DNA from: Candidatus Campbellbacteria bacterium
Lineage (GTDB): Bacteria > Patescibacteriota > Minisyncoccia > Phycocordibacterales > EsbW-18
Direction of reading: 5' to 3'
DNA length: 64,000 bases
Assembly: GCA_016699465.1 (NCBI GenBank)
Contig: CP064977.1
Span: forward strand, 409,743 to 473,742
Shown: positions 7,248 through 53,503 of the stretch, piece after piece
How positions within the stretch are numbered: position 1 is the stretch's first letter
How the letters are laid out: each line of letters opens with the position of its first letter
Notes under the pieces: generated by a model
Databases searched by the model: none
What the model saw: only the letters and a program-made list of their open reading frames with translations
What the model was told of the DNA's origin: nothing
Made by a program: the position numbers and the translations under genes

Positions 7248-7964
7248 ATGTCATTTGGTTCATATCTAAAACAACAAAGAGAATCGAATAACTGGAGTAT
7301 CAAAGAGATCGCAGAACGGCTCGGCTTTTCCTCAAGTTACGTGAGCCAGTTGGAGAATGGGACTCGTATGCCGTCTAATAAACAGTTGGCGGTTTTTGCT
7401 AAGGCTTACCAGCTTCCCGAAGAGGAAGTGAAGAAGCATTGGGCAGAGGGCAAGATGCAAAAGGTCAGCATGCAGACTGACTACAAATTCAATCTCAAGG
7501 ATGTCGGCGAGAAGCGCGTACATGAAGCCGCCAACAAACTCGAAGAAGGATTGGAGGAATTGAAAAAGAGTTTTTCCGGTGATGGTCATTTTAAATTGCC
7601 GGTGCTTGTAGCGATTCCTATTGATGATCTCGACGGTCATCTAAGTCGAACGAGCGACTTTGTTTTATTGCCAAAAGATAATGTGGTTTCAGGTCACCGA
7701 GTGTTTGGACTCCGTGTATCCGATCTCACACTCCCCGATGCGGCCATTCTTTCTGGAGACTTCATCATTCTCGATGCCGACATTGCCCCAAAGAATGGCG
7801 ACATCGTGATCATGAGCACACCGGATGGTCTGGTGATGACTTATTACCAAGAGCGGGGCGATCACCTTGAGCTTCGGCCAGAGAAGGAAGGCTTCAAAAA
7901 AACCTACCATCTCAAGGAGAGTAAGATGATAGGCCGATTGGTTTACCACATCAAAAAATATTAA
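7248..7964 (+). CDS. CI/LexA-like repressor (N-terminal XRE HTH plus C-terminal S24-peptidase-like domain)
   Basis: N-terminal HTH (IKEIAERLGFSSSYVSQLENG). C-terminal LexA/S24-like segment (GLRVSDLTLPDAAILSGDFIIL...NGDIVIM). Confidence 0.6.
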   Translation: MSFGSYLKQQRESNNWSIKEIAERLGFSSSYVSQLENGTRMPSNKQLAVFAKAYQLPEEEVKKHWAEGKMQKVSMQTDYKFNLKDVGEKRVHEAANKLEEGLEELKKSFSGDGHFKLPVLVAIPIDDLDGHLSRTSDFVLLPKDNVVSGHRVFGLRVSDLTLPDAAILSGDFIILDADIAPKNGDIVIMSTPDGLVMTYYQERGDHLELRPEKEGFKKTYHLKESKMIGRLVYHIKKY

Positions 7965-10632: not shown

Positions 10633-11478
10633 TCAGAACGTCCAGATTGTCGAGACGGTCGGCGTCGCCGGGATGGCGAATCGCCCACTTCGGCTGTCGC
10701 TCTCCGACCGGAGGAGCGATAGCTTCAGCTTCATCAGCCGCCCCTGATACGAAACACTCGGCTTGGCGTAGATTGAATATCGTTCCTTGTCGGAAGCGAT
10801 CACGCCACCCGACATCCCGAGGACCCACGGCCCCTTCTCGTACACGTACGACATCTCGCCGTACGCGTACAGACGATCGCCGTCGCCGTAGGCCGTATGG
10901 TAAACGCCGACATACTGCCACCCGAGCTCGGTTGACCATCCACCACGAAGTGTTCGACTGAACGAACCCAGCGGGCCGATGAAGGTCGAGGACTTTCCGC
11001 CTCGGTACGGCGGAGCGTAAAAAATCTCTACGCCCGCCTTCCCCGACCACTTACCCAGAGAAAACTTCCTCTGAATGATGGGATCGATGAAGTGGGCCAT
11101 GACGCCGGCATCGTGCGTCCCGAGGGCTTTGACACCCAAGAGGAACACGTCCCAGTTGTCGTCAGCGTACGTGAGCGACAACCCCGCGATGGGATCGTCG
11201 CTCGCCACGGAGCCGAAGGACTTGAACGCGGATCGCGAAGACCAACTGGTCTCCAGCGTCCACAGATCGTCCTTCTCGAGCACCGTGACTGGAGCGATGT
11301 TCACCCCGGTCACCAGGTTCGTGGTCATGGCGAGCTGGTCGCCGTTGACCTCCTGACCATGCGCCGCGATGGCACAGGCCAGAGGCCAGCCCACCAACAG
11401 CGCGAGGACGATCCACAGTAGAGGCTGTGCGGTCTTCTTGTTGACTCGAGCAACGAGGGCCGTGTTCAGACTCTTCAC
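10633..11478 (-). CDS. outer-membrane beta-barrel-like protein (high-GC island)
   Basis: Signal peptide, alternating beta-strand pattern, C-terminal ...WTF aromatic terminus. About 62% GC versus about 43% in the flanking genes. Confidence 0.4.
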   Translation of the reverse strand: MKSLNTALVARVNKKTAQPLLWIVLALLVGWPLACAIAAHGQEVNGDQLAMTTNLVTGVNIAPVTVLEKDDLWTLETSWSSRSAFKSFGSVASDDPIAGLSLTYADDNWDVFLLGVKALGTHDAGVMAHFIDPIIQRKFSLGKWSGKAGVEIFYAPPYRGGKSSTFIGPLGSFSRTLRGGWSTELGWQYVGVYHTAYGDGDRLYAYGEMSYVYEKGPWVLGMSGGVIASDKERYSIYAKPSVSYQGRLMKLKLSLLRSESDSRSGRFAIPATPTVSTIWTF

Positions 11479-36526: not shown

Positions 36527-36838
36527 GTGGATAATATTTAGAATATAGAATATGAAAGACAGCGTAAGAACATATACAGAATATCAGAAAAAACCTTTTT
36601 CAGAAACAAAAACACCGCCTTGTGAGCGATGTTTTTGATTGAATGCTTTGTTCTGGCGGCTACCTACTCTTGCCCTTACGGACTACCATCGGCACTAATG
36701 AGCTTAACTTCCGAGTTCGGAATGAGATCGGGTGTATCCCCATCGTTAAGCCACCAGAACAAAATTTTCAATCAGAATGAACTCTGACAACTGCATAAGT
36801 ATACACAAACACTGAAGAGTGGCCCTTTTTTGAAAAAT

Positions 36839-36915
36839 TGGAGTTCCTAGCAGGACTTGAACCTGCAACCTCCACCTATGCAAGGTGGTGCTCTACCTAT
36901 TTGAGCTATAGGAAC
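36839..36915 (-). tRNA. tRNA-Cys(GCA)
   Basis: Hand fold: acceptor GTTCCTA/TAGGAAC, anticodon arm CCACC-TTGCATA-GGTGG, T-arm GCAGG-TTCAAGT-CCTGC, CCA encoded. Confidence 0.75.
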
Positions 36916-36940
36916 CCATTTTTATTTAAAAAAGGGTGAT

Positions 36941-37012
36941 TGGGAGGGTGGGGTTCGAACCCACAACACTCGAGTTTTGAGCTCGATGCTCTACCGTTGA
37001 GCTACCTCCCCA
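36941..37012 (-). tRNA. class I tRNA with anticodon CAA (Leu codon UUG) but Phe/Met-like body; G1.A72 mismatch
   Basis: Hand fold: GGGGAGG-TA-GCTC-AACGGTA-GAGC-A-TCGAG-CTCAAAA-CTCGA-GTGTT-GTGGG-TTCGAAC-CCCAC-CCTCCCA-A. No CCA encoded. Confidence 0.5.
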
Positions 37013-37107
37013 ATCGAAGATTGGTCGACCTGTCTCAGATTTCTCTGAGAAGAGATTATGATGTGGATCTCCCACATCATATCTCGTCAGGCCGTTAAAG
37101 AACACGA

Positions 37108-37261
37108 AGTGGTGGACCTGGAGGGATTCTAACCCCCAACCTCTTGGTTTAACAAGCGCTCTGACAAGGCTCATCCGTTAGGGATTTGAACCCCTGAAAC
37201 CAACGGCTGTGTTGATTTCCCCATCCGTGGGTTATAGGACAACCCATTTTGAGCTACAGGT
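37108..37261 (-). ncRNA. 154-nt tRNA-like element of unknown identity, downstream of the 23S 3' end
   Basis: Perfect 7-bp terminal helix GGACCUG...CAGGUCC followed by A-CCA. Internal anticodon-arm-like GGGTT-GTCCTAT-AACCC and two T-loop-like motifs. Does not fold as a canonical single tRNA or as a 5S rRNA. Confidence 0.25.
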
Positions 37262-37714
37262 CCAAAATATTTCCACTCTTCAATGTTTGTGTAGTATTCC
37301 CCGACGTATACATCGGAGCAAAAAGAAATCAGCGCGCTATGAATCGATTTTCAGATTACCTAACAGGAGATGTCGACGAATTAGTACATCTCGGCTCCAC
37401 ACATTACTGTGCGTCCACCTAATGCCTATCAACGTGATCATCTCTCACGGGTCTTAATGATTTCTAATCTTGAAGTTGGCTTCCCTCTTAGATGCTTTCA
37501 GAGGTTATCCATTCCCGACATAGCTACGCAGCGGTGCACCTGGCGGTACAGCTGCCACACCAGAGGTCAGTTCATTCCGGTCCTCTCGTACTAGGAACGA
37601 ATCTTCTCAAAAATCAGCGCCTGCAGCAGATAGGAGACCAACCTGTCTCACGCATGTTTCCAACGATTGCTCGTTGCATTGGACTATACCTTATACCTCG
37701 CTTTGCGAGTAAAC

Positions 37715-38375
37715 CCAAAGTTCAAATTTCAAAGCTCAAAATTTTGGATTTTGTGCTTTGTGCTTTGGATTTTCTTCTGCATCGCAGAAGGCATGTTGAC
37801 ATGTAGTCTCTACGGGTAATTGTGAATTCTATTGAGGGGCCGACGCAGGGTCAGCCCGGAACTTTCTGATCGAGTCAGATGATCCAGCTCGTCAGCATGT
37901 AGCTGGCGAAAAAGACCAAGACGCTGAGCGCGATCTTGATGTCGCGATCGACGTTCCTCATTTCTTCCTTGGTAGGGTGAACGAAGAAGTCTCGACGACT
38001 GCACGCAGGAAGAAATCCCGGCATGAAAGAACCTCCTTTCTGGACAGAAATGTCCTCAATAGAACTCACAATCATTCCCTCGGAATTACCCATAAAGGGT
38101 TTTCCCGATATAAGTCAACTTACTTCATACACATTACTATGTATGACCGCCGTGATATGATTGGTTCCTTTTAGTTTTCATCTTAAAAGACGAAAAGATT
38201 TTTTGGGCAACCGATTTCATTTTAAAATCGGAAGTTTTATTAGACAACATTACTTCGAAGGGATTCAGACTGTTTTGAAACCAATCACAAAATCCAAAGT
38301 TCAAAATCCAAAAAAATTCTAAGGTTTAAATCTTAAAAAACTTTTTTGAGCTTTGTGCTTTGAGCTTTTGATTTC
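37715..38375. repeat. IVS-like insertion in 23S, bounded by palindromic AT-rich repeat copies
   Basis: Copies of AAAGTTCAAAATCCAAAAAA...TTTTGAGCTTTGTGCTTTGAG at both ends (37715-37775, 38290-38375). A GC-rich interior has short ORFs with weak similarity (SRRDFFVH) to the four-helix-bundle protein. Confidence 0.55.
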
Positions 38376-38411
38376 AGTTCCAGAACGGTCTGAACCCAGC
38401 TCGCGTACCTT

Positions 38412-38444
<33 letters not shown>

Positions 38445-39044
38445 TCTCCAGCCCCGGGATAAGGTGAGCCGACATCGAGGTGCCGAACACCACCGTCGCT
38501 ATGGACGCTCGGGTGGTACCAGCCTGTTATCCCCAGAGTAGCTTTTATCCGTTGAGCTCCCCCCGCATCTAAAGCGAAAGGTCGGATCACTATGCTCTAC
38601 TTTCGTACCTGCTCGACATGTCCGTCTTGCAGTTAAGCCCTCTTTTGCCATTACACTATCGGCACGGTTTCCATTCGCGCCTAGAGGACCTTTATAGACC
38701 CCTCCGTTACTTTTTAGGAGGGATTCGCCCCAAACAAACTACCTGCCAGATACTGTTCCCTACCGTTTTTGCCGTCAGGGTTAGAACGTACAATTCAAAA
38801 GAGTGGTATTTCATATTTCGAGTCCAGCAGAGCCAAAACCCTGCCTTCAACCTCTCCCACCTATGCTACGCATTTAACTCGTACGCCCAATATCAAGCTG
38901 TAGTAAAGCTTCTGGGGTCTTTTCGTCTAGCTGCAGGTAGAGGGCATCTTCACCCCCATTGTATTTTCACCGAGCGAGTCCTCGAGACAGTTCCCCAGTC
39001 GTTACACCATTCGTGCGCGTCAGAACTTACCTGACAAGGAATTG

Positions 39045-39083
<39 letters not shown>

Positions 39084-40849
39084 CAGGGCTTATACAGTTC
39101 AGCATATACCTTGCGGCACACACCCCCCGTACTTGACCTTCTGGCATTGGTCAGGTGTCACCCCCTATACATCCTCTTGCGAGTTCGCAGGGAGCTGTGT
39201 TTTTGATAAACAGTCGCCAGGGAGACTTTCGCTGCGGCCCACGTACTGCTACGTGGGCAGACCTTATTGCTAACTTACGGTCGCTTTTTTGCCGAGTTCC
39301 TTGAGGACCTCTCACTCGTTCGCCTTACTCTACTCGAGCTGAACACCGGAGTCGGTTTGCGGTACGGTCTGTGTGTATTTATTCTTAGAAGATTTTCTTG
39401 GAAGCGCGCTCTATACCATTCCCCAACCCGAAAGTTGAGTTCTCGAAAACACTCGGGATAGTGCCTGCCGGATTTACCTAACAAGCGCCCTCGTGTCCCC
39501 GACACAAATCCAATAATGTGCGATATATACAGCACTCCGTCTCTCCATCGAAATACACCCAGGTCATGGAATATTAACCATGTGTCCATCATGTTCGGAT
39601 TTCTCCATCCACTTAGGCCCGACTAACCCTTCGCTGATTACCATCGCGAAGGAAACCTTGTTCTTTCGGCGTGCGGGTATTTCACCCGCATTGCGGTTAC
39701 TTGTACCAACATTCGCTCTTCGGAACGCTCCACCGTGGCTCACGCCTTCGGCTTCATCGCAGATCCAAATGCTCTCCTACCACTGCACATGCACGAATGC
39801 ACATACAATCCTCAGTTTCGGTACAATGCTTAGCCCCGATTGTCTGTGGCGCGAAGTCTCTAAATGAGTGAGCTGTTACGCTTTCTTTAAAAGATGGCTG
39901 CTTCTAAGCCAACTTCCTCAGTGTTTAAGAAACTTCACCTCCTCGACTGTGCACTTAGCATTGATTTTGGGACCTTAACTTGAGATCAAGGGCTGTTTCC
40001 CTTTTGACCAGTGGAGCTTAGCCCCCACGGTCTAACTGCCTAACACTTTACTCTTGGTATTCGGAGTTTGATTGGTCCAGCGAGATTTCTCCCTATCCAG
40101 ACCATCCAGTGCTCTACCCCCAAGAGGTACGTTAGACGCCAGCCCAAAAGCTGTTTCGGAGAGAACCAGCTATTACTAGGTTCGATAAGCTTTTCACTCC
40201 AACCCACAAGTCATCCGAAGATTTTGCACCATCAACCGGTTCGGGCCTCCCTCCATCTTTCGACAGAGTTCACCCTGCTCATGGGTAGCTCACCTAGCTT
40301 CGGGTCTTATGCAGACGACTAAAAGTAGAAGTTGGAGGCCAGACTCGAAGATACCGAAGTACCTTTTCGCCTGACTTCTAACTTCTACTATGTTCGCGCT
40401 ATTCACACTCGGTTTCCCTACAGATTCATCCGACAAAGGACTTATCTTACGCCGTGTGCATAAACTCGTTGGCTCATTCTTCAATAGGCACGCCATGACG
40501 GTCTTGCGACCGCGCTGACTCCTTGTAGGCATATGGTTTCAGATCTATTTCACTCCCCTCTCCGGGGTTCTTTTCACCTTTCCCTCGCGGTACTAGTTCA
40601 CTATCGGTCTCAATGTGTATGTAGCCTTGCCGGTTAGTTCCGGCGGATTCCCTCAGGCTATTCGTGTCCTGAGGTACTCAGGAACGGTAACTAGAAAGAT
40701 GTGTTCTTTTCGCATACAGGACTATTACCCTCTAGGGTCGCGCTTTCCAGCGCATTCTGCTAAGAACACATTTTGTAACTTTCTCCTTATCCGAAGACAG
40801 GCGTTACCGCCCTACAACCCCGCACGCATCACGCTGTACGCGATGCGTA

Positions 40850-40940
40850 AATCCAAAATCCAAAGTTCAAAATCCAAAAAAATTCTAAGATTTTAATTCT
40901 TAAAAACTTTTTTGAGCTTTGTACTTTAAGCTTTGTGCTT
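40850..40940. repeat. short hairpin-only copy of the same palindromic repeat in the 23S 5' domain
   Basis: aatccaaagttcaaaatccaaaaaaattctaag...ctttttttgagctttgtactttaagctttgtgctt. Confidence 0.5.
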
Positions 40941-41912
40941 ACCCATCACATCCAATGTGATGCGCACGGTTTGGGCTTCTCCCGTTTCGCTCGCCGCTAC
41001 TAAGGGAATGACAATTGTTTTCTTTTCCACTGGGTACTGAGATGTTTCACTTCCCCAGGTATGCTCCTCATATTGCTATGAGATTATCGAGGGTTACTCG
41101 ATAGGGTTTCCCCATTCGGAAATCTCCGGATCAAAGGTTGCTTAACACCTCCCCGAAGCTTATCGCAGTTACACCACGTCCTTCATCGCCACATTGAACC
41201 AAGGCATCCACCATACGCCCTTTAAATCTCCCGTTAGGAAATCTAAAAACCGTCTCGCATACAACCGCCTACAAAGTGGTTGCATGCTACTTTCATATTT
41301 CTACTTGATTGTTTCATTGGAGCTAGATTAACCAATGAAACTACCTGCTCTTGTCTTACTCAAAAGACAAGAATTTTTGATTCTTTTTGCCCCGACTTTT
41401 TATAGTCGGGATACTACCTATGCAGTTGTCAAAGTTCATCTACCTTGTATGAGAACAAAAAAACCGCTTTTTCAAGCGGAGATTTCTGAGGCACACCGAT
41501 TGTGCGCATTTAGATGCTCCGCGTCGATATGCAGTTAGCTGGTGTATTCATACTAGGTGTTGCCTATTATAGCCATGCAGAGCACCGTGTCAAGGATTTA
41601 GGTCCCAAAAATGCCTCTTTAGTGCAATCAAAAAATGAGACAAAAAACCCTTACAGAATAAAGGTTTTTAAGACCGTCTATAAAAGTCCTGAAAAGTCCC
41701 TGGGGAGAACCTGTGGGTAAGATTTCATTCGCCTCACTTTCTTGGAAACACGCATCGTTTTCTGCTGAAAACGCGCTCCCTCTCGAGCTCAGCTCTCCGA
41801 GAGTTTTCCAAAAAAGAAGGCTTCACCCCTAAGGTTTGGATACAAAAAAATAATGGAAAAGAGCCCGACGGACAAAGCTTTTAGACTCTTTTCCACGGGC
41901 TCTTGCACCCAC

Positions 41913-43854: not shown

Positions 43855-45999
43855 CTATTTACTTCGCTGTTCAATGATTGTTTTTGCAACGTTCTCTGGA
43901 ACCACTTCGTAGTGATCAAATTCCATCGTTGAGTTTCCTCGTCCTTCTGTCATCGAACGGAGCTGTGTGGTGTATCCAAACATTTCTGAAAGTGGCACAA
44001 ATGCACGCACCACCTTGAGTTGACCGCGGTCTTCCATTCCTTCAATTTGTCCGCGCTTTGATGAAAGATTTCCGGTGATGTCACCCATGAACTGTTCAGG
44101 AATAACCACTTCAATTTTCATAATCGGCTCAAGGAGCACTGGGCGAGCTTTTCGTGTTGCCTCTTGCAATGCTTGTGACGCTGCAATCTTGAACGCAATT
44201 TCAGATGAGTCCACGTCGTGGTACGAACCATCGTAGAGTTCAACAGACACATTCACCATGCGGTACCCCGCGAGAATACCACGATCCATCGCTTCACGAA
44301 GTCCTTTCTGCACAGCAGGAATAAATTCTTGTGGAATAACACCTCCCTTGATACTGTTGATAAATTCGAGTCCTTCGTCTCTCTTTGTGTTCTTTGGCAA
44401 ATCTTCATCTTTGATAGATGTATCCATCTGCTTCACCTTGATCTTCACGTGACCATACTGTCCCTTACCACCAGTTTGTTTGATGTACTTGTTTTCAACA
44501 TCTGCTTCACCGAGAATTGTTTCGCGGTATGCCACTTGTGGCTTACCAACGTTTGCATCAACTGAAAATTCACGACGCATACGTTCAACGAGCACTTCAA
44601 GGTGCAATTCACCCATGCCGGCGATAATGGTTTCGAGTGTTTCAGGATCTGACGTCACGCGGAATGTTGGGTCTTCGTCTGAAAGTCGCTTGAGTGCCAT
44701 ACCAAGTTTTTCTTGGTCTGCCTTTGTCTTTGGTTCAATACGAAGAGAAATAACTGGTTCAGGAATTTTAATTCGTTCAAGAATAATTGGGTGTGCCTCA
44801 TCACACAGTGTGTCAGATGTTTTTGTATCCTTGAGACCTACCGCTGCTGCAATTTCTCCCGCAAACACCTTCTTTACTTCTTCTCGATCGTTGGCGTGCA
44901 AACGCACAATACGTCCCACACGCTCTTTCGTTTCCTTTGTTGCATTGTACACATACGAGCCGGCTTCAAGAGAACCTGAGTACACACGGAAGAATGTAAG
45001 CTGACCAATAAATGGATCCGCCTGCACTTTGAATGCGAGCGCTGCAAATGGTTCCTCATCGGATGCGTGACGAATAATTTCTTCGTTGGTATTTGGGTCA
45101 ATTCCCTTTGCTGGAGGAATATCAAGTGGTGATGGAAGGTAATCAATAACTGCATCGAGCACGAGTTGCACACCTTTGTTCTTGAGCGCAGAACCTGTGA
45201 ACACAGGAATAATAAGGTTTGCGATAACCGCCTTGCGCAAAATTGCTTTAAGCTCCGCGTATGACGGCTCCTTCCCTTCCAAGTACATATTCATTGCCGC
45301 TTCGTCTTGCTCAACAATTTTTTCAATAAGTGTGTGGCGGTGCTTTTCAGCTTCTGCTTTCAAATGCTCAGGAACATCGTCTTGTCGAATGACACTACCC
45401 TTGTCTCCTTCAAAGTAAAATGCACGCATGGTGAGCAAATCAACAACACCTTCATGTTTGTCTTCTTCACCAATTGGAATTTGCATGCGAACTGCGTTCG
45501 GTGTGAGTCGATCGAGGATAGATGCGTATGAACGCTCAAATGATGCACCAGTACGATCGAGTTTGTTGATGAAACACATACGAGGCACTTTTCCTTCTTC
45601 TGCGTAGCGCCAGTTTGTTTCTGATTGTGGTTCAACTCCTGACACACCATCGAATACCACAACAGCACCGTCGAGCACACGGAGTGATCGTTTCACTTCA
45701 ATTGTAAAGTCGATGTGTCCTGGGGTATCAATGAGATTGAATCGGTGTTTGAGTTCTGTATTTTTTGCGTCGTATGAAGGTGTCCAAAAACACGTCGTTG
45801 CAGCAGCAGTAATCGTAATACCACGCTCACGTTCCTGCTCCATCCAGTCCATGACGGTGTCTCCTTCGTGCACTTCACCAATTTTGTGAGACACTCCTGT
45901 ATAAAAAAGCACGCGTTCGGAAACAGTTGTCTTTCCCGCGTCAATGTGTGCCACGATACCGAAGTTGCGTACTTTCTCTAGTGGATAGTCTCGTTCCAT
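43855..45999 (-). CDS. fusA: elongation factor G
   Basis: G-domain [21 protein letters not shown]. Full EF-G length. Confidence 0.9.
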
Positions 46000-47773: not shown

Positions 47774-48268
47774 TTATTTCTTCTTTGGTCTCGCAAGTGC
47801 GAAGTGAGCAAATGCTTTGTTGGCCTCCGCCATCTTGTGCACGTTGTCACGCTTTGCCATAGCACCTCCCTCTCCTTTACTTGCGGCAAGCAATTCTCCT
47901 GCGAGTCGTGTTGCAAAATCTGCACCCTTCTTTGCGCGAGCACCTTCAAGGAGCCATCGGAGTGCGAGTGCGAGCTGTCGTTCTGGACGAACTGGATGTG
48001 GCACCTGATAGTTGGCACCTCCCACACGTCGTGAGCGAACTTCCATTGTTGGTGCAACACTCTGAATGGTCTGTTCCAAAAATGCAGCAGGATCTTCGAC
48101 GTTGTTCTTTGTCTTTAAAATATCGAGGGCATCGTACACCAATTTTTGTGCAACGCTCTTTTTACCGTGCTTAATCACATGCGCAATAAGCTTACTTACC
48201 GTAACTGAGTGGTAGACTCGGTCTGGAAGCATTGGGTGTTTTTCTCGTTCTTTAAGTTTACGACGCAT
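47774..48268 (-). CDS. rpsG: ribosomal protein S7
   Basis: S7 family motifs (KHGKKSVAQKLVYDAL...). Confidence 0.85.
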   Translation of the reverse strand: MRRKLKEREKHPMLPDRVYHSVTVSKLIAHVIKHGKKSVAQKLVYDALDILKTKNNVEDPAAFLEQTIQSVAPTMEVRSRRVGGANYQVPHPVRPERQLALALRWLLEGARAKKGADFATRLAGELLAASKGEGGAMAKRDNVHKMAEANKAFAHFALARPKKK

Positions 48269-48277
48269 AATGATGAG

Positions 48278-48368
48278 TTAAAATTCAAAGTTCAAAATTT
48301 AAAATCTAAAAAATGTTTGATGTTTATAATTTAAAGTTCTTTGAGCTTTGTGCTTTAGATTTTGTGCT
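48278..48368. repeat. palindromic AT-rich repeat (IVS-stem family) in the rpsL-rpsG intergenic region
   Basis: aaattcaaagttcaaaatttaaaatctaaaaaa...ctttgagctttgtgctttagattttgtgctt. Confidence 0.5.
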
Positions 48369-48784
48369 TACTTCGCTGCCTTTGGACGCTTCGCCCCGTA
48401 ATGACTTCGTCCCTTTCTTCGTTTGTCTACTCCTTCAGCATCAAATGTTCCACGAACGATTGTGTAACGAACTCCAATGTCTTTTACACGACCGCCGCGC
48501 AAAAGTACCACTGAGTGTTCCTGCAACTTGTGTCCCATTCCTGGAATGTACGCCGTAACTTCTTGACCGTTCGTCAATCGTACACGAGCAATTTTTCGGA
48601 TAGCTGAGTTTGGCTTCTTTGGAGTTGTTGTCTTCACCTGCGTACACACACCACGCTTAAATGGAGATGGGTATCGTGAAGGTCGGTTTTCGAGTGTGTT
48701 AAAACCACGACCAAGGGCGGTCGTCTTTGTTTTGCGAGCTGACTTCTTTCGATTTTTTCGAATAAGCTGGTTGATTGTCGACAT
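48368..48784 (-). CDS. rpsL: ribosomal protein S12
   Basis: Highly conserved S12 sequence (PKKPNSA(I)RK, GGRVKDLPGVRY-like). Confidence 0.9.
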
Positions 48785-49079: not shown

Positions 49080-49727
49080 TTAAAAGGAAATACCAGTAAT
49101 GAGGGTAAAAAGGACGCTTACAAGAGGGGCAATAAACTTCCACCCAACAAGAACAACAATAAAGACAAAGATAAAACCATATCTATCCATACTTTGCAGA
49201 CGTGCGGCATACCGTAAAGGAAGCGCCGCCATCAAGACCTTCGAGCCATCGAGTGGTGGAACAGGAATAAGGTTAAATACCATAAGGGCAATATTTGTCA
49301 CTACAATAAGAACGGCAATAGAAAGAACCCCTTCAGGAAGCACGCCTCCTGCGAAGCGAATAAGGAAACCGAAAATAAGTGCCAAAAGAAGATTGGTACC
49401 GGGACCAGCAAGCGCAACGTACGCCTCGCTCCACTTCCCCGGGCGTAAATTGTATGGATTGTACGGCACTGGTTTTGCCCATCCAAAAATAAATCCCCCT
49501 GACAACCATGTAATGGCCGGAACAATAATGGAACCTATCATGTCCAAGTGAGAAATTGGGTTGAGTGTCAGACGTCCAGCAAGTCGAGCCGTTGGATCAC
49601 CCAGCGCGTTTGCAGCATAGCCGTGCGCAACCTCGTGTAAGACGACGGAAAGCATAACAATGGCAATGACAATGGCGGTTGTTGCGATATCGGGCATGAT
49701 GAGGAAAGCACAAAGCTCAAAGTACAA
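49080..49727 (-). CDS. site-2 protease family (M50) zinc metalloprotease
   Basis: HEVAHG and NLIPVPPLDG motifs. Multi-TM. Confidence 0.7.
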   Translation of the reverse strand: MYFELCAFLIMPDIATTAIVIAIVMLSVVLHEVAHGYAANALGDPTARLAGRLTLNPISHLDMIGSIIVPAITWLSGGFIFGWAKPVPYNPYNLRPGKWSEAYVALAGPGTNLLLALIFGFLIRFAGGVLPEGVLSIAVLIVVTNIALMVFNLIPVPPLDGSKVLMAALPLRYAARLQSMDRYGFIFVFIVVLVGWKFIAPLVSVLFTLITGISF

Positions 49728-49738
49728 AATCCAAAAAA

Positions 49739-50128
49739 TTATTTAGAAGATTTTATTTTGGCTTCAGTGTTCCACATGATAGTACTAAATATTCGGGCAA
49801 GTTCCAATGACTCACCGTACAAACGTTTACGAACACGTTCGATTTCTTCGGTGTGTACCGAAATAAGACTAAGCCAATAAGCACTTTCTCGCGCTTCTTT
49901 ACGGCAAATTCGTATGCGATGCACAAAATCCCTGCGACTTAAACACTCATTTGCCTCAATATAATTAGCCCCCACTGATCCCGACGACCTAATGAGTTGT
50001 TTACAATCCTCAATAGTGGCCTGGGTTTTCTGAAGAATGGACGTAAAATGTCGGACATTCATTGCAAATGTCCTGCTCCGTTCTTCTAAATCAAATATTT
50101 TCCTTTCTTGTTGATCTTCATTTGTCAT
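49739..50128 (-). CDS. four-helix-bundle protein (23S rRNA intervening-sequence protein / Avd-like family)
   Basis: QLIRSSGSVGANYIEA motif typical of the family. Flanked by inverted copies of the IVS-stem repeat (49704-49745 and 50128-50165). Confidence 0.65.
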   Translation of the reverse strand: MTNEDQQERKIFDLEERSRTFAMNVRHFTSILQKTQATIEDCKQLIRSSGSVGANYIEANECLSRRDFVHRIRICRKEARESAYWLSLISVHTEEIERVRKRLYGESLELARIFSTIMWNTEAKIKSSK

Positions 50129-50211
50129 TTTTTGAGCTTTGTGCTTTTGATTTTGAGCTTTGACTAGCATATTTTACTGTGCTAGTATCAAGTTTCGATA
50201 AAGTTATATAT

Positions 50212-50466
50212 ATGACCAAAGAATGCGTTATAACAGGAGCAACAACACTCACCGCTGGTCGCTACAGTAATAGAACGCGCGCGACGCAGTTTAACCCTGG
50301 CGTAAAACGAGGTAAGAAGCGCCGAAAGGCCAACTTACAGAAGCGCAAGCTTTTTATTCCTGAACTCGGAAAAAGCGTTCATGTTGTTGTCTCAAACCGC
50401 GGCATGAAAACAATTCGTAAGAATGGCGCATATTCAGCCCTCAAGAAAGTCGGCGCTCTCAAATAG
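50212..50466 (+). CDS. rpmB: ribosomal protein L28
   Basis: C(V)ITG...R..RATQFNP...VVVSNRGMKTIRKNG pattern. Terminator hairpin 50477-50510. Confidence 0.65.
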   Translation: MTKECVITGATTLTAGRYSNRTRATQFNPGVKRGKKRRKANLQKRKLFIPELGKSVHVVVSNRGMKTIRKNGAYSALKKVGALK

Positions 50467-50608: not shown

Positions 50609-53308
50609 CTATCTTCCTTTCATCAATTCAGCCAAAAGTTGTTTCAGGAGTTCAATAAGTTGTGTTTGGAGTTGAATGAGAAACACATTAGTATTAGTGG
50701 CTATTCGTGCTCGCCCAGATGCACCACCTCCAGTAATCGCTTCCTCAACAGCCACTTCGTTCGGAGTTATATCAACCACAAAAATATCTTCGACTTCATT
50801 CGTATCGCCAGCAACAAGATCTGTTGCAAACGACGTAAATGAAATGACATTTCCATCATCAGAAATAAAAGGATTCGCCGAATACTCTGAAACTTCATTC
50901 CCTGCATCATTTACATTAATAAGCGTTGTTGTGTTTTGTGTACGATCACGAAGGAACACATCCGTCCGCTCACTATCAGTGTCATCTGGAGTGAGCACCC
51001 CCCTTGAATCAAACACCACGTACCGTCCATCTGTTGATATTGAAAAACATGAAGCCACCTCTTCCTCACAAGGTTGAGCCAACGATTCTTCTCCTGCAGT
51101 AGAAACGCTCACTCGTTCAATCGTATCAAGTGTTCTATCATACACAAAAAGATCTCCTTGAGCATTTGTATCACCCGCAACAAGATTTGTTGCGTTGGAT
51201 ACAAAGACGGCATACCGACCCGTTGATGAAATAATCCCTTCGTATGAATCCTCATCTGCTTCTAACCCCGCCTCATCTACACTCACTCGTTCAATAGTAT
51301 TGAGTGTGCGATCGTAGACAAATACATCCATGGAACTGTTTGTATCCCCTTCAATGAGATTTGTTGCACTCGAAGAAAACAGCACGTATCGACCATCGTC
51401 AGATATATCAGATGCTCCAGCATTCGAATCCCCTTCGACACCACCACTTGTTTTATCAATAAGCTCAAGAGTCTCAGCATCTCTATCGTACAAAAAAACA
51501 TGATTGTATCCCCGGGTTGTTTCCGCCGTCAAAAGCCCACTTGTTTGAAATAAAACATACTGTCCGTTCCCAGAAATGGTGCCCCCTACTACATGTTCAC
51601 TATTTTCTGCACCTTCGCTACTCAAACTCACTCGTTCGATAACATCTGCGTTACGATCGTACACAAACATATCATCCTTACTATTTGTATCACCGACAAC
51701 AAAGTTACTTGCCCCAGAATAAAAAGCAACATATCGACCATCTGAAGAAATGGATGGATTTTTTGAAGCTCCATTGCCTTCGGCACCCTCATCATCCACA
51801 CTCACACGCTCAATAGTGTCGAGCGTGCGGTCATACACAAACACGTCTGTTACGCCATTTGTATCGTCGGCAACAAGATTTGTTGCATCTGACTCAAACG
51901 CAACATATCGGCCATCTGAAGAAACGACAGACATTATCGAACGAGCGTCCCCTTCACTCCCCGAAGGCGTGTCCGACGCACGACTGATAAGCTCAATTGT
52001 TTCAAGCGTACGATCGTACACAAATCTATCAGCAAATCCATTAGTATCCCCAGTGACAAGATTTGTTGCTGAAGAATTAAACGCAACATATCGCCCATCA
52101 TCTGAAATAGTTGGATACTCAGACGCACCAGTACCCTCAACTGACGCGGCACTCACACTAACACGTTCCGTGACTCCAGATAATTGATCGTGCACAAAGA
52201 TATCCGCAACAGCATTTGTATCACCCGCCACCAAATTACTTGCTTCAGAATCAAACACCACATACCGTCCATCATCTGAAATAGAGGCATTACTTGAATG
52301 ACTATCCCCCTCCACACTCTCACTATCAACACTCATCCGCTCAACCGTATCAAGCGTGCGGTCATACACGAACACATCAGTCGCTCCATTTGTATCACCA
52401 GCGACAAGATTTGTTGCCTCCGAGTCAAACGCAACATATCGCCCATCACCAGAAATAGCAGGGTCTCGTGATGAGCCATCACTTTCCAGACCATCACTAT
52501 CCACACTCACACGCTCGATGATATCGAAGGTTCTGTCATAGACAAAAATATCATCCGCAACACCTGTATCCCCACCAACAAGATTTGTTGCCCCTGAATC
52601 AAATGCGACATAGCGACCGTCTGAAGAAATGGATGGTTCGTTTGATGCAAAATTTCCTTCAACACCCTCACTATCCACACTCACGCGCTCAATAGTATCG
52701 AGCGTGCGGTCATACACAAACACGTCTGTTACGCCATTTGTATCGTCGGCAACAAGATTTGCCCCACCAGAATTGAATGCAACGTATTGCCCGTCATCTG
52801 AAATAGAAGCATCCCGAGAAGAACCATCACTTTCATTTCCAAGAGCATCAATACTTACCCGCTCAATCGTATCAAGTGCTCTGTCATACACAAAAATATC
52901 TTGTACCAAATTTGTATCACCAGCAACGAGATTTGTTGCATCCGATTGAAATGCCACATATCTACCATCTGAAGAAATAAACGGCTTGTCAGATGCGTCA
53001 TCACCTTGAGTACCGTCAGTAGCAACACTCACTCGTTCAATAGCATTGAGCATGCGGTCATACACGAACACATCAGTCGCTCCATTTGTATCGCCAGCGA
53101 CAAGATTTGTTGCATCTGACTCAAATGCAACATATCGGCCATCAGATGAAATCGAGAAATGCGCTCTGTTTACAGAAGATGCATTACCTTCCGCCCCCAA
53201 AACGGTGAATGTTGATGTCGGCACACTCACATGCTCAACGGTTCGTGCGTATACACACAGCGGTACTACAAACGATATAAGTACTGTTGTAATTATTTTT
53301 TGTATCAT
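50609..53308 (-). CDS. large secreted protein with about 16 tandem PD40/TolB-like beta-propeller repeats
   Basis: Signal peptide. Repeating unit about 55 aa: ISSDGRYVAFDS.ATNLV.GDTNG..DVFVYDRTLDTIERVSV. The repeats are also near-identical at the nucleotide level. Confidence 0.55.
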   Translation of the reverse strand: MIQKIITTVLISFVVPLCVYARTVEHVSVPTSTFTVLGAEGNASSVNRAHFSISSDGRYVAFESDATNLVAGDTNGATDVFVYDRMLNAIERVSVATDGTQGDDASDKPFISSDGRYVAFQSDATNLVAGDTNLVQDIFVYDRALDTIERVSIDALGNESDGSSRDASISDDGQYVAFNSGGANLVADDTNGVTDVFVYDRTLDTIERVSVDSEGVEGNFASNEPSISSDGRYVAFDSGATNLVGGDTGVADDIFVYDRTFDIIERVSVDSDGLESDGSSRDPAISGDGRYVAFDSEATNLVAGDTNGATDVFVYDRTLDTVERMSVDSESVEGDSHSSNASISDDGRYVVFDSEASNLVAGDTNAVADIFVHDQLSGVTERVSVSAASVEGTGASEYPTISDDGRYVAFNSSATNLVTGDTNGFADRFVYDRTLETIELISRASDTPSGSEGDARSIMSVVSSDGRYVAFESDATNLVADDTNGVTDVFVYDRTLDTIERVSVDDEGAEGNGASKNPSISSDGRYVAFYSGASNFVVGDTNSKDDMFVYDRNADVIERVSLSSEGAENSEHVVGGTISGNGQYVLFQTSGLLTAETTRGYNHVFLYDRDAETLELIDKTSGGVEGDSNAGASDISDDGRYVLFSSSATNLIEGDTNSSMDVFVYDRTLNTIERVSVDEAGLEADEDSYEGIISSTGRYAVFVSNATNLVAGDTNAQGDLFVYDRTLDTIERVSVSTAGEESLAQPCEEEVASCFSISTDGRYVVFDSRGVLTPDDTDSERTDVFLRDRTQNTTTLINVNDAGNEVSEYSANPFISDDGNVISFTSFATDLVAGDTNEVEDIFVVDITPNEVAVEEAITGGGASGRARIATNTNVFLIQLQTQLIELLKQLLAELMKGR

Positions 53309-53503
53309 ATGAATGTTTTTGCCATGCCACCTATTTTGAAGCGACAGTAAATAAATAAAAAACATAACACCTACATGTATCATACCTATCGCTTCAGTAT
53401 ATCAGGTTTTTATTTTTTCATGGTTTTACTCACCCACATACAAAAACACTCGGCACAGAGCTGGGTGTTTTTATTTACTACACACCTCACCCCTAACAGG
53501 CCG

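Follow-up and report, generated by a model that had tools for sequence, protein, structure and literature searches.

Within a 64,000-nucleotide (nt) stretch of the Candidatus Campbellbacteria contig CP064977.1 (hereafter, the window), a gene for a four-helix-bundle (4HB) protein of the family named after the intervening sequences (IVSs) of 23S rRNA lies outside the rRNA, directly upstream of the genes for an M50 peptidase, rpsL, rpsG and fusA. We found that this gene and two flanking arms made of tandem 7-nt units (heptads) constitute one discrete cassette of ~460 nt, an "open reading frame (ORF) in a hairpin". The reading that we favor, and consider reasonably likely, is that of an IVS-type cassette that is co-transcribed with its host operon and probably cut by RNase III at the stem. 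It would then be an IVS-type element living in mRNA, namely in the 5' leader of the operon formed by M50, rpsL, rpsG and fusA.

The 4HB ORF is surrounded by a perfect 17-nt inverted repeat, in which AAAGCACAAAGCTCAAA at 49705-49721 pairs with 50131-50147. A preliminary description of the window, whose sequences and coordinates for the gene and its arms we recovered unchanged, had presented the arms as reverse complements of each other. This holds over the 17-nt core, but when the arms are extended to 35 nt (49705-49739 and 50127-50161) complementarity falls to 74%. Both arms are built of tandem heptads, which read (NNNCAAA)n in the 5' arm and (TTTGNNN)n in the 3' arm (Table 1); at this gene only the arm at 49708-49735 passes a strict heptad criterion, the other arm having a TTTTGAT unit. 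The fit of the arms to the gene is tight, as the 5' arm stops 2 nt short of the 4HB ATG and the 3' arm begins immediately past the stop codon, leaving 7 nt between its end and the M50 ATG. In minimum free energy and centroid folds of the sense RNA, the 17-bp stem encloses the whole ORF, and the cassette thus has the terminal complementary stem that defines an IVS (17 bp perfect; 35 nt at 74%). No Rfam covariance model matched between 47700 and 50500 at E-values up to 1.

The 4HB ORF starts with the ATG at 50128, within a longer reading frame that reaches up to 50170. Its product was recognized by PF05635 (43.6 bits, cut-off 33.8, E = 3.8e-11) and by TIGR02436 (57.8 bits, cut-off 24, E = 1.1e-15), in both cases above the curated cut-off, and is 100% identical to an NCBI entry annotated "four helix bundle protein". 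The RxxxSxxxNxxE motif that defines the family (PMC3936711) is present as R47-S51-N55-E58 within QLIRSSGSVGANYIEAN; among 49 homologues S51, N55 and E58 never vary and R47 hardly ever does. The sole solved structure related to the protein by sequence is PDB 2RLD (3e-20), an entry with five chains. Neither PADLOC nor PHROGs gave a match to the protein and none was found in a phage collection, while plasmids held distant cyanobacterial homologues only (33-40%). We therefore rejected a role as a defense-system or phage protein, given the lack of PADLOC, PHROGs and phage-collection matches.

To place the cassette among its relatives, we used a synteny scan seeded with S12 (relatives are cited by locus label, e.g., L170). 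The order L28, M50, S12, S7, with L28 divergent, is common in relatives, most of which have no 4HB gene between L28 and M50. Two close relatives, L090 and L091, lack the gene, and in L092 only an ORF-less remnant is left. Cassette and flanks of other relatives tell different histories. L170 is nearly identical to the window in its left flank (67/73) and right flank (54/57; 92-95%) versus only 263/504 positions (52%) across the cassette, whereas L002 agrees less well in its flanks (65/87 and 36/57; 63-75%) than in its cassette (406/457; 89%). Likewise, L170 and the window share 94-99% identity in their host proteins but only 59% in the 4HB protein, and the arms of L170 are of CGAA type; in L168 the L28 protein is 99% and the 4HB protein only 62% identical. 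The heptad core of L170 and L168 differs from that of the window even though their L28 proteins are 98-99% identical to the window's. One exchange break point falls in the 5' arm, just within its outermost heptads, and the other at the start codon of M50. At the same site, L101 carries a member of another 4HB subfamily (~30% identity) with a heptad inverted repeat of its own. Taken together, presence/absence and the incongruence between cassette and flanks indicate that gain, loss and replacement affect the cassette as a whole. These alignments show that it is exchanged between closely related genomes, for which transposition and gene transfer followed by homologous replacement are both conceivable routes. 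No target-site duplication was visible at the alignment break points, the empty sites of L090 and L091 being too diverged for precise alignment.

Variation is also seen at the spacer between rpsL and rpsG, which measures 6-30 nt in many relatives and holds heptad hairpins with differing cores in others. The proposal of the preliminary description, that a small mobile cassette can land in rRNA and in the intergenic regions of mRNA, draws support from this variable spacer as well as from presence/absence and the incongruence of L170 and L002. Some of the spacer hairpins keep an ATG plus a few codons. Those at L097:4900-5045, L145:1830-2035 and L160:4885-5040 retain the canonical "CGAAACAA..ATGAAA" start context, and their right ends have in common TTTAAAAC just ahead of the rpsG ATG. 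By their sequence, the ORF-less rpsL-rpsG hairpins of relatives look like internal-deletion derivatives of 4HB cassettes. In addition, GCACCAATGGCCAAGCACCAA, the 5' arm of the L168 4HB gene (L168:1680-1786), is almost the same as GCACCAATAACCAAGCACCAA, which forms the left arm of the ORF-less hairpin between rpsL and rpsG in L170 (L170:5565-5715); near-identical strains thus have arms in common between copies with and without an ORF.

Both the protein and the arms are maintained. The dN/dS ratio of the 4HB ORF is 0.10 against L002 and 0.09 against L003, at synonymous differences (pS) of 0.39-0.63. Over the same distance, the 5' arm is identical to that of L002 at 38 of 42 positions and the region 49698-49738, on the 3' side, at 41 of 41 plus one indel. 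Since dN/dS is ~0.1 and the arms are conserved beyond synonymous sites, protein and arms are both under purifying selection.

We next considered whether this design is peculiar to the genome at hand. A protein-based scan, with one genome taken per species, yielded 80 homologous loci from about 15 phyla, including Patescibacteria, Planctomycetota, Bacteroidota, Desulfobacterota, Chloroflexota and Armatimonadota; an 81-locus set was made from these by leaving out two unusable loci and adding the relatives L002-L004. Inverted repeats with a score of 30 or more flank the gene at 60/81 loci, compared to 3/81 with shuffled flanks. At least one strict heptad arm is present at 65/80 loci, and where there are two, the core base is identical in 37 of 38 cases. 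The lag-7 autocorrelation is 0.46 in the flanks versus 0.25 within the ORF. The modal arm consists of 4 heptads (28 nt); in the consensus, 6 nt separate the 5' arm, aanAAATtCGAAacaCgAAatnCgAAAttCgAAACAA, from the ATG, and the 3' arm reads TTGTTTcGgATTTcGanaTTcgaATTTnGgATTT. The spacing from AACAA to the ATG is fixed at 11 nt in 29/54 loci, and the median gaps to the neighboring genes (58 and 85 nt) are essentially of arm length. The heptad-arm design is therefore a property of the family across phyla, and is not special to the Campbellbacteria genome. When the window's 23S rRNA was compared to the 80 loci by blastn, none was found to lie in a 23S gene (0/80), i.e., a location outside rRNA is the rule in the 4HB family. 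The preliminary description had called the element an "orphan"; it does lie outside rRNA, but given that this location is the family rule and that the arms are family-wide, the term is not apt. At permissive thresholds, Rfam gave no match to the arms of 18 other loci.

Sixty-one of 67 of these genes are co-oriented with both neighbors, where 25% would be expected by chance, which points to dependence on host transcription. In other phyla, ORF-less hairpins with the same core are frequently found near a 4HB cassette, sometimes several in tandem; examples are L064:3766-5194, L070:1309-1420 and 7655-7747, L054:3831-3971, and L044:307-531. The similarity of 4HB proteins in relation to heptad core type (64.6% vs. 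62.7%) differs by an amount that is statistically detectable but tiny, and so gives no support to a core-specific recognition of heptads by the protein. Among the database matches to the window protein, 4HB proteins of very different phyla are all ~50-62% identical to it and many are encoded on contigs shorter than 2.5 kb; this uniform identity and the short contigs are consistent with horizontal spread, or with assemblies that break at repeats.

The arms of the cassette recur within the window itself. Occurrences of the 14-mer GCACAAAGCTCAAA (up to 2 mismatches) number 9, against 0.75 expected, and none of 100 shuffled sequences reached 9. Arrays of at least three heptads, again compared with shuffled sequence, number 11 in the 64 kb versus 0.16 in shuffles and are confined to five loci. 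Apart from the 4HB gene itself, these are pairs of C-type and G-type arrays at 37713-37770, 38285-38365, 40851-40938 and 48276-48367, none with an ORF; exact 14-17-mers are common to the copies. Three of the hairpins lie in insertions of the 23S gene. The hairpin at 38285-38365 matches the 4HB element in two stretches: GCACAAAGCTCAAAAAA, with which the left arm ends on its inner side, and AATTTTTTGGATTTTG-ACTTTG, with which the right arm begins (first ~22 nt). The surplus of matches and these shared arm ends show that the likeness between the 4HB and 23S hairpins is sequence-specific and goes beyond AT-richness. The earlier view that one stem family bounds both the 23S insertions and the 4HB gene is thus upheld. 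With five loci in 64 kb, the copies also present the features of miniature inverted-repeat transposable element (MITE)-like sequences, i.e., terminal inverted repeats and several intergenic copies. The same view held that an empty hairpin occurs between rpsG and rpsL; an ORF-less heptad copy is indeed there, but it is degenerate and poor as sense RNA (-10.5 kcal/mol, z = +0.28).

Among the 23S copies, the insertion in domain I is itself a heptad hairpin; its two arrays span 40851-40878 and 40911-40938, and its fold energy is -41.4 kcal/mol (z = -8.4). As sense RNA the 40851-40938 hairpin reaches -38.0 kcal/mol with 9 G-U pairs, versus -19.3 for the antisense, and the 38285-38365 hairpin -26.1 kcal/mol with 7 G-U pairs, versus -17.9. 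Their greater stability in the sense strand, together with the G-U pairs, shows that these two hairpins are shaped as RNA. No strand difference was found for the hairpin at 37713-37770 (-19.2 sense vs. -19.4 kcal/mol antisense). The two hairpins last named lie at the edges of an insertion of ~720-750 nt in domain V (37617-38369, minus strand), where the 23S gene is broken at model position 2632 (window 38370) and picks up at 2656 (window 37616), the real 3' part of the 23S gene being at ~37373-37650. A "full length" Rfam match to 23S in the whole window (38306-41234) conceals this insertion. No decayed 4HB gene was detected in the ~720-nt insertion, the best match (E = 0.18) being elsewhere in the window. 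For the 23S hairpins, Rfam returned only the large subunit (LSU) rRNA and a sub-threshold chance match to MIR9563 (30 bits vs. a gathering threshold of 90).

These features can be put together in a proposed mechanism. The cassette would have no promoter of its own and would be transcribed within the host transcript from the promoter-like site at 50198-50171, a stretch conserved with L170 and L002 and, in the alignment, outside the exchanged unit. In the RNA the arms would pair as a stem of 17-28 bp, 2 nt from the 4HB start and 7 nt from the M50 start, and this pairing would occlude the places where translation of both genes begins. RNase III would then cut this stem, by analogy with IVS stems. 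The cut might free the 4HB mRNA and an M50-rpsL mRNA with a short leader, so that the host RNA stays functional, whether as fragmented 23S rRNA or as a downstream mRNA that is translated separately. More speculatively, a pentameric 4HB protein could bind heptad stems both in cis and in trans. Cleavage by RNase III has been shown experimentally for the IVS stems of Leptospira and Salmonella. The enzyme itself is kept in at least 90% of genomes of the Candidate Phyla Radiation (CPR; PMC12641178).

Table 1. Positions in the window of the 4HB cassette, the surrounding genes and the ORF-less heptad copies.
Feature	Position	Strand	Remarks
5' arm (sense) CAAAGCTCAAAATCAAAAGCACAAAGCTCAAA	50131-50164	minus	NNNCAAA heptads; 17-nt core 50131-50147
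3' arm (sense) TTTTTTGGATTTTGTACTTTGAGCTTTGTGCTTT	49705-49738	minus	TTTGNNN heptads; 17-nt core 49705-49721
4HB protein gene, 129 amino acids (aa)	49739-50128	minus	PF05635/TIGR02436, alias 23S_rRNA_IVP or S23p; occupies the cassette loop
Promoter-like site TCGAAA, 16 nt, TAAAAT	50171-50198	minus	consensus match only; predicted start at outer edge of 5' arm
L28 gene	50212-50466	plus	divergent neighbor of 4HB gene
M50 peptidase gene	49080-49697	minus	directly downstream of 4HB cassette
rpsL	48368-48784	minus	downstream of M50 gene
ORF-less heptad hairpin	48276-48367	minus	fills rpsL-rpsG spacer; degenerate
rpsG	47774-48268	minus	downstream of rpsL
fusA	43855-45999	minus	downstream of rpsG
133-nt insertion	40826-40958	minus	in 23S domain I, in place of a 5-nt hairpin loop at about position 283 of the Rfam LSU model
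Heptad hairpin	38285-38365	minus	5' edge of 23S domain V insertion, after model position 2632
Heptad hairpin	37713-37770	minus	near 3' edge of 23S domain V insertion; z -3.6

Several observations weigh against this interpretation. We infer the transcription of the cassette and its cleavage by RNase III, the latter by analogy, and a stem of 17 bp is at the short end of the substrate range of that enzyme. The arms in the window carry no strand signal, since the core is perfectly Watson-Crick paired and the duplex is about as stable in either strand (-26.0 sense vs. -27.6 kcal/mol antisense), and the rpsL-rpsG hairpin is more stable as antisense (-16.1 vs. -9.3 kcal/mol for sense). Among the arm mismatches at 60 loci there is no preference for sense-strand G:U (94 vs. 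105), and most are transversions (302) located in the variable triplets. The cassette encodes no recombinase, reverse transcriptase (RT) or endonuclease. Finally, the synteny of L28 with 4HB-M50-S12-S7 extends over at least eight lineages, with 4HB identity declining from 88 to 52%, and the history at this site could be mostly one of vertical descent and homologous replacement, rather than transposition.

Part of this evidence counts toward an explanation at the DNA level. Here the element would be of foldback or MITE type, with arms that are terminal inverted repeats acting as DNA, i.e., as a hairpin, a cruciform or sites for a recombinase supplied in trans, and the RNA stem would be a by-product. 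The mismatch pattern of the 60 loci and the antisense stability of the rpsL-rpsG copy both favor it, and arms composed of short tandem units are reminiscent of foldback transposons. The exchange break points lie at the arms, and ORF-less derivatives retain the start-codon context in the manner of internal-deletion derivatives of an autonomous element. However, cassettes inserted in the sense direction between co-directional genes in 61 of 67 cases, rather than the quarter expected by chance, do not sit well with a DNA element, nor do the 40851-40938 and 38285-38365 copies in 23S, with their sense-strand stability and G-U pairs. Furthermore, no transposase, target-site duplication or recombinase was identified, and we know of no catalytic activity for the 4HB fold. 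We regard this explanation as unlikely overall, and since the arms show no family-wide G:U bias and transversions predominate among their mismatches, we nevertheless continue to give it appreciable weight.

The conserved synteny could also mean that the 4HB gene is an ordinary resident, vertically inherited as the first gene of the M50-rpsL operon, with arms that form an mRNA-stabilizing or autoregulatory stem and without mobility. Strong purifying selection on protein and arms would fit such a gene, as would the grouping of the 4HB proteins of the window, L002 and L003 in one clade. It is difficult, though, to reconcile with the incongruence of cassette and flanks in L170 and L168, where the heptad core differs, with the different subfamily at the L101 site, and with the lack of the gene in L090 and L091 and its reduction to an ORF-less remnant in L092. 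The same arms also recur in unrelated contexts, including the inside of rRNA, and the same design in unrelated operons across phyla. Comparison of the window with L170, L002 and L168 largely contradicts a resident gene, which we take to be improbable.

PF05635 proteins are homologous to Avd, the accessory protein of diversity-generating retroelements (DGRs; PMC10053308; bioRxiv 10.1101/2023.10.23.563531), and the gene might thus be the Avd of an orphan or remnant DGR whose RT and template repeat are elsewhere or lost. The preliminary description had pointed out the Avd relationship and the lack of an RT in the window, and we likewise found no RT (RVT) domain in 14 ORFs at 30.5-60.6 kb (13 of at least 250 aa and a 192-aa neighbor) or in the ORF at 10633-11478; the sole ORF containing YxDD had no Pfam match. 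Template or variable repeats were not seen beside the 4HB gene in a repeat search that spanned 49600-50300, with no search dedicated to such repeats. The immediate neighbors in every relative are L28 and the M50 peptidase, PADLOC gave no match, and the operon-embedded, arm-bracketed layout is unlike that of a DGR. With no RT in the nearby ORFs scanned, we rejected a DGR remnant as very improbable. Least credible of all are generic AT-rich intrinsic terminators or low-complexity sequence flanking the gene by chance, which had been named as the outcome that would undo the earlier view: the arms are A/T-rich and the 3' arm opens with a T-run, but a terminator scan found no site with a G+C-rich stem and T-run at the arms, exact 14-17-mers are shared well beyond expectation, some copies are located within 23S rRNA, in which a terminator would be lethal, arm sequence is kept while synonymous sites vary, and the 7-nt periodicity is family-wide, all of which refutes it.

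Some further features of the surroundings were recorded. In L090:60-150, L091:3720-3835 and L101:3200-3320, the M50 ATG is 7-8 nt past a TATAAT box that is absent in the window, and the L101 cassette lies upstream of this box; such a box near the M50 ATG suggests, from its position, a leaderless mRNA in these relatives. The L28 gene of the window adjoins a gene for a PD40-type protein of 924 aa (50609-53383, minus strand) that consists almost entirely of "DGRYVAF...TNLV..DTN...DVFVYDR" repeats. The domain V insertion of the 23S gene gave no match to an Rfam intron and contains a 72-aa ORF (37875-38093) without a Pfam match, and both of its flanks resemble one 23S segment (CGTGAGACAG-like). The rRNA locus (36651-41234) has the order 23S, an odd tRNA-like sequence, tRNA-Leu(CAA), tRNA-Cys(GCA) and 5S; the 16S gene is not adjacent to the 23S gene, which has protein-coding sequence upstream. 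The tRNA-like sequence (37113-37263, minus strand) scored 41.6 bits with Rfam, was not called by ARAGORN, and has an 86-nt insertion in the D-loop region bearing a T-arm-like GGGGTTCAAATCCC.

The cassette has much in common with the S23p IVSs of Leptospira, Coxiella burnetii and CPR rRNA, in which an ORF for a PF05635 protein likewise fills the loop between terminal inverted repeats. In the Coxiella IVS the terminal stem measures 28 bp, tandem heptamers (GACAGAT), variable in number among strains, directly precede the S23p ATG, and RNase III cleaves the element in vitro (PMC4990558). The 28 bp equal four heptads, the modal arm of the family. Passive transcription within host RNA would be another shared trait, as are short ORF-less versions in rRNA (PMC11270868; this window); CPR rRNA genes contain both 23S_rRNA_IVP ORFs and many short ORF-less insertions (PMC11270868). 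In contrast to these IVSs, the 4HB cassette is not in rRNA but belongs to an mRNA leader, with a promoter-like site on one side and the M50-rpsL operon on the other, and free-standing copies are apparently the majority, to judge from the 80 sampled loci. RNase III cleavage has been demonstrated for the Coxiella IVS, whereas for the cassette it is presumed. Moreover, the ORF of the Coxiella IVS is decaying and probably unexpressed (PMC4990558), whereas that of the window is under purifying selection.

Correia repeat enclosed elements (CREE) of Neisseria and other bacterial MITEs offer a second comparison. These are small intergenic inverted-repeat elements, co-transcribed with their neighbors and variably present among strains, and RNase III can bind the hairpin of the CREE RNA and either cleave or protect it (PMC2649163). 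CREE differ in having no ORF and inverted repeats that are not tandem heptads. They also have a TA target duplication plus integration host factor (IHF) or promoter motifs; no target duplication was identified at the 4HB cassette. Avd has a homologous pentameric four-helix-bundle barrel, a likeness that for the window protein is one of sequence relationship only, and its pentamer contacts an RNA stem-loop with all five protomers via flipped-out bases (bioRxiv 10.1101/2023.10.23.563531). This RNA binding sets a precedent for a 4HB pentamer that recognizes a stem with periodic irregularities, although the 4HB gene differs from Avd in its housekeeping-operon context and the lack of an RT in the nearby ORFs scanned. 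Finally, the window protein is a regular member of the free-standing TIGR02436 proteins such as 2RLD. Genes of this family have been noted wedged between cas genes, e.g., cmr3 and cmr2 (PMC3936711). In the reports that we found, a free-standing 4HB gene is either treated as a functional partner of its neighbors or left uncharacterized, and heptad arms and cassette exchange are not described. Nor did we find any description of a heptad cassette outside rRNA in the literature or in Rfam.

A wider generalization is conceivable, which we put forward as tentative and more doubtful than the reading of the cassette itself. All PF05635/TIGR02436 genes might be mobile intercistronic cassettes with inverted arms of ~4 x 7 nt, carried in the sense direction in host transcripts, and the 23S IVS would be the special case that was found first. 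The pentamer would read heptad stems, with one protomer per heptad as in Avd with its stem-loop, and could act in trans on the ORF-less copies of rRNA and ribosomal-protein operons, controlling their processing, stability or spread.

For thirty years the 23S IVS and the S23p ORF within it have been regarded as an oddity with, to our knowledge, no known function or origin, while genomes contain thousands of genes annotated as "four helix bundle protein" without context. A single architecture now links rRNA IVSs, free-standing 4HB genes, and the short ORF-less hairpins of rRNA and ribosomal-protein operons. It turns a vaguely described family into a defined element with testable parts, i.e., stem, heptads and pentamer, and offers a source for the many short, uncharacterized insertions in CPR rRNA. 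It also cautions against taking 4HB genes as functional partners of the genes next to them, such as cas genes.

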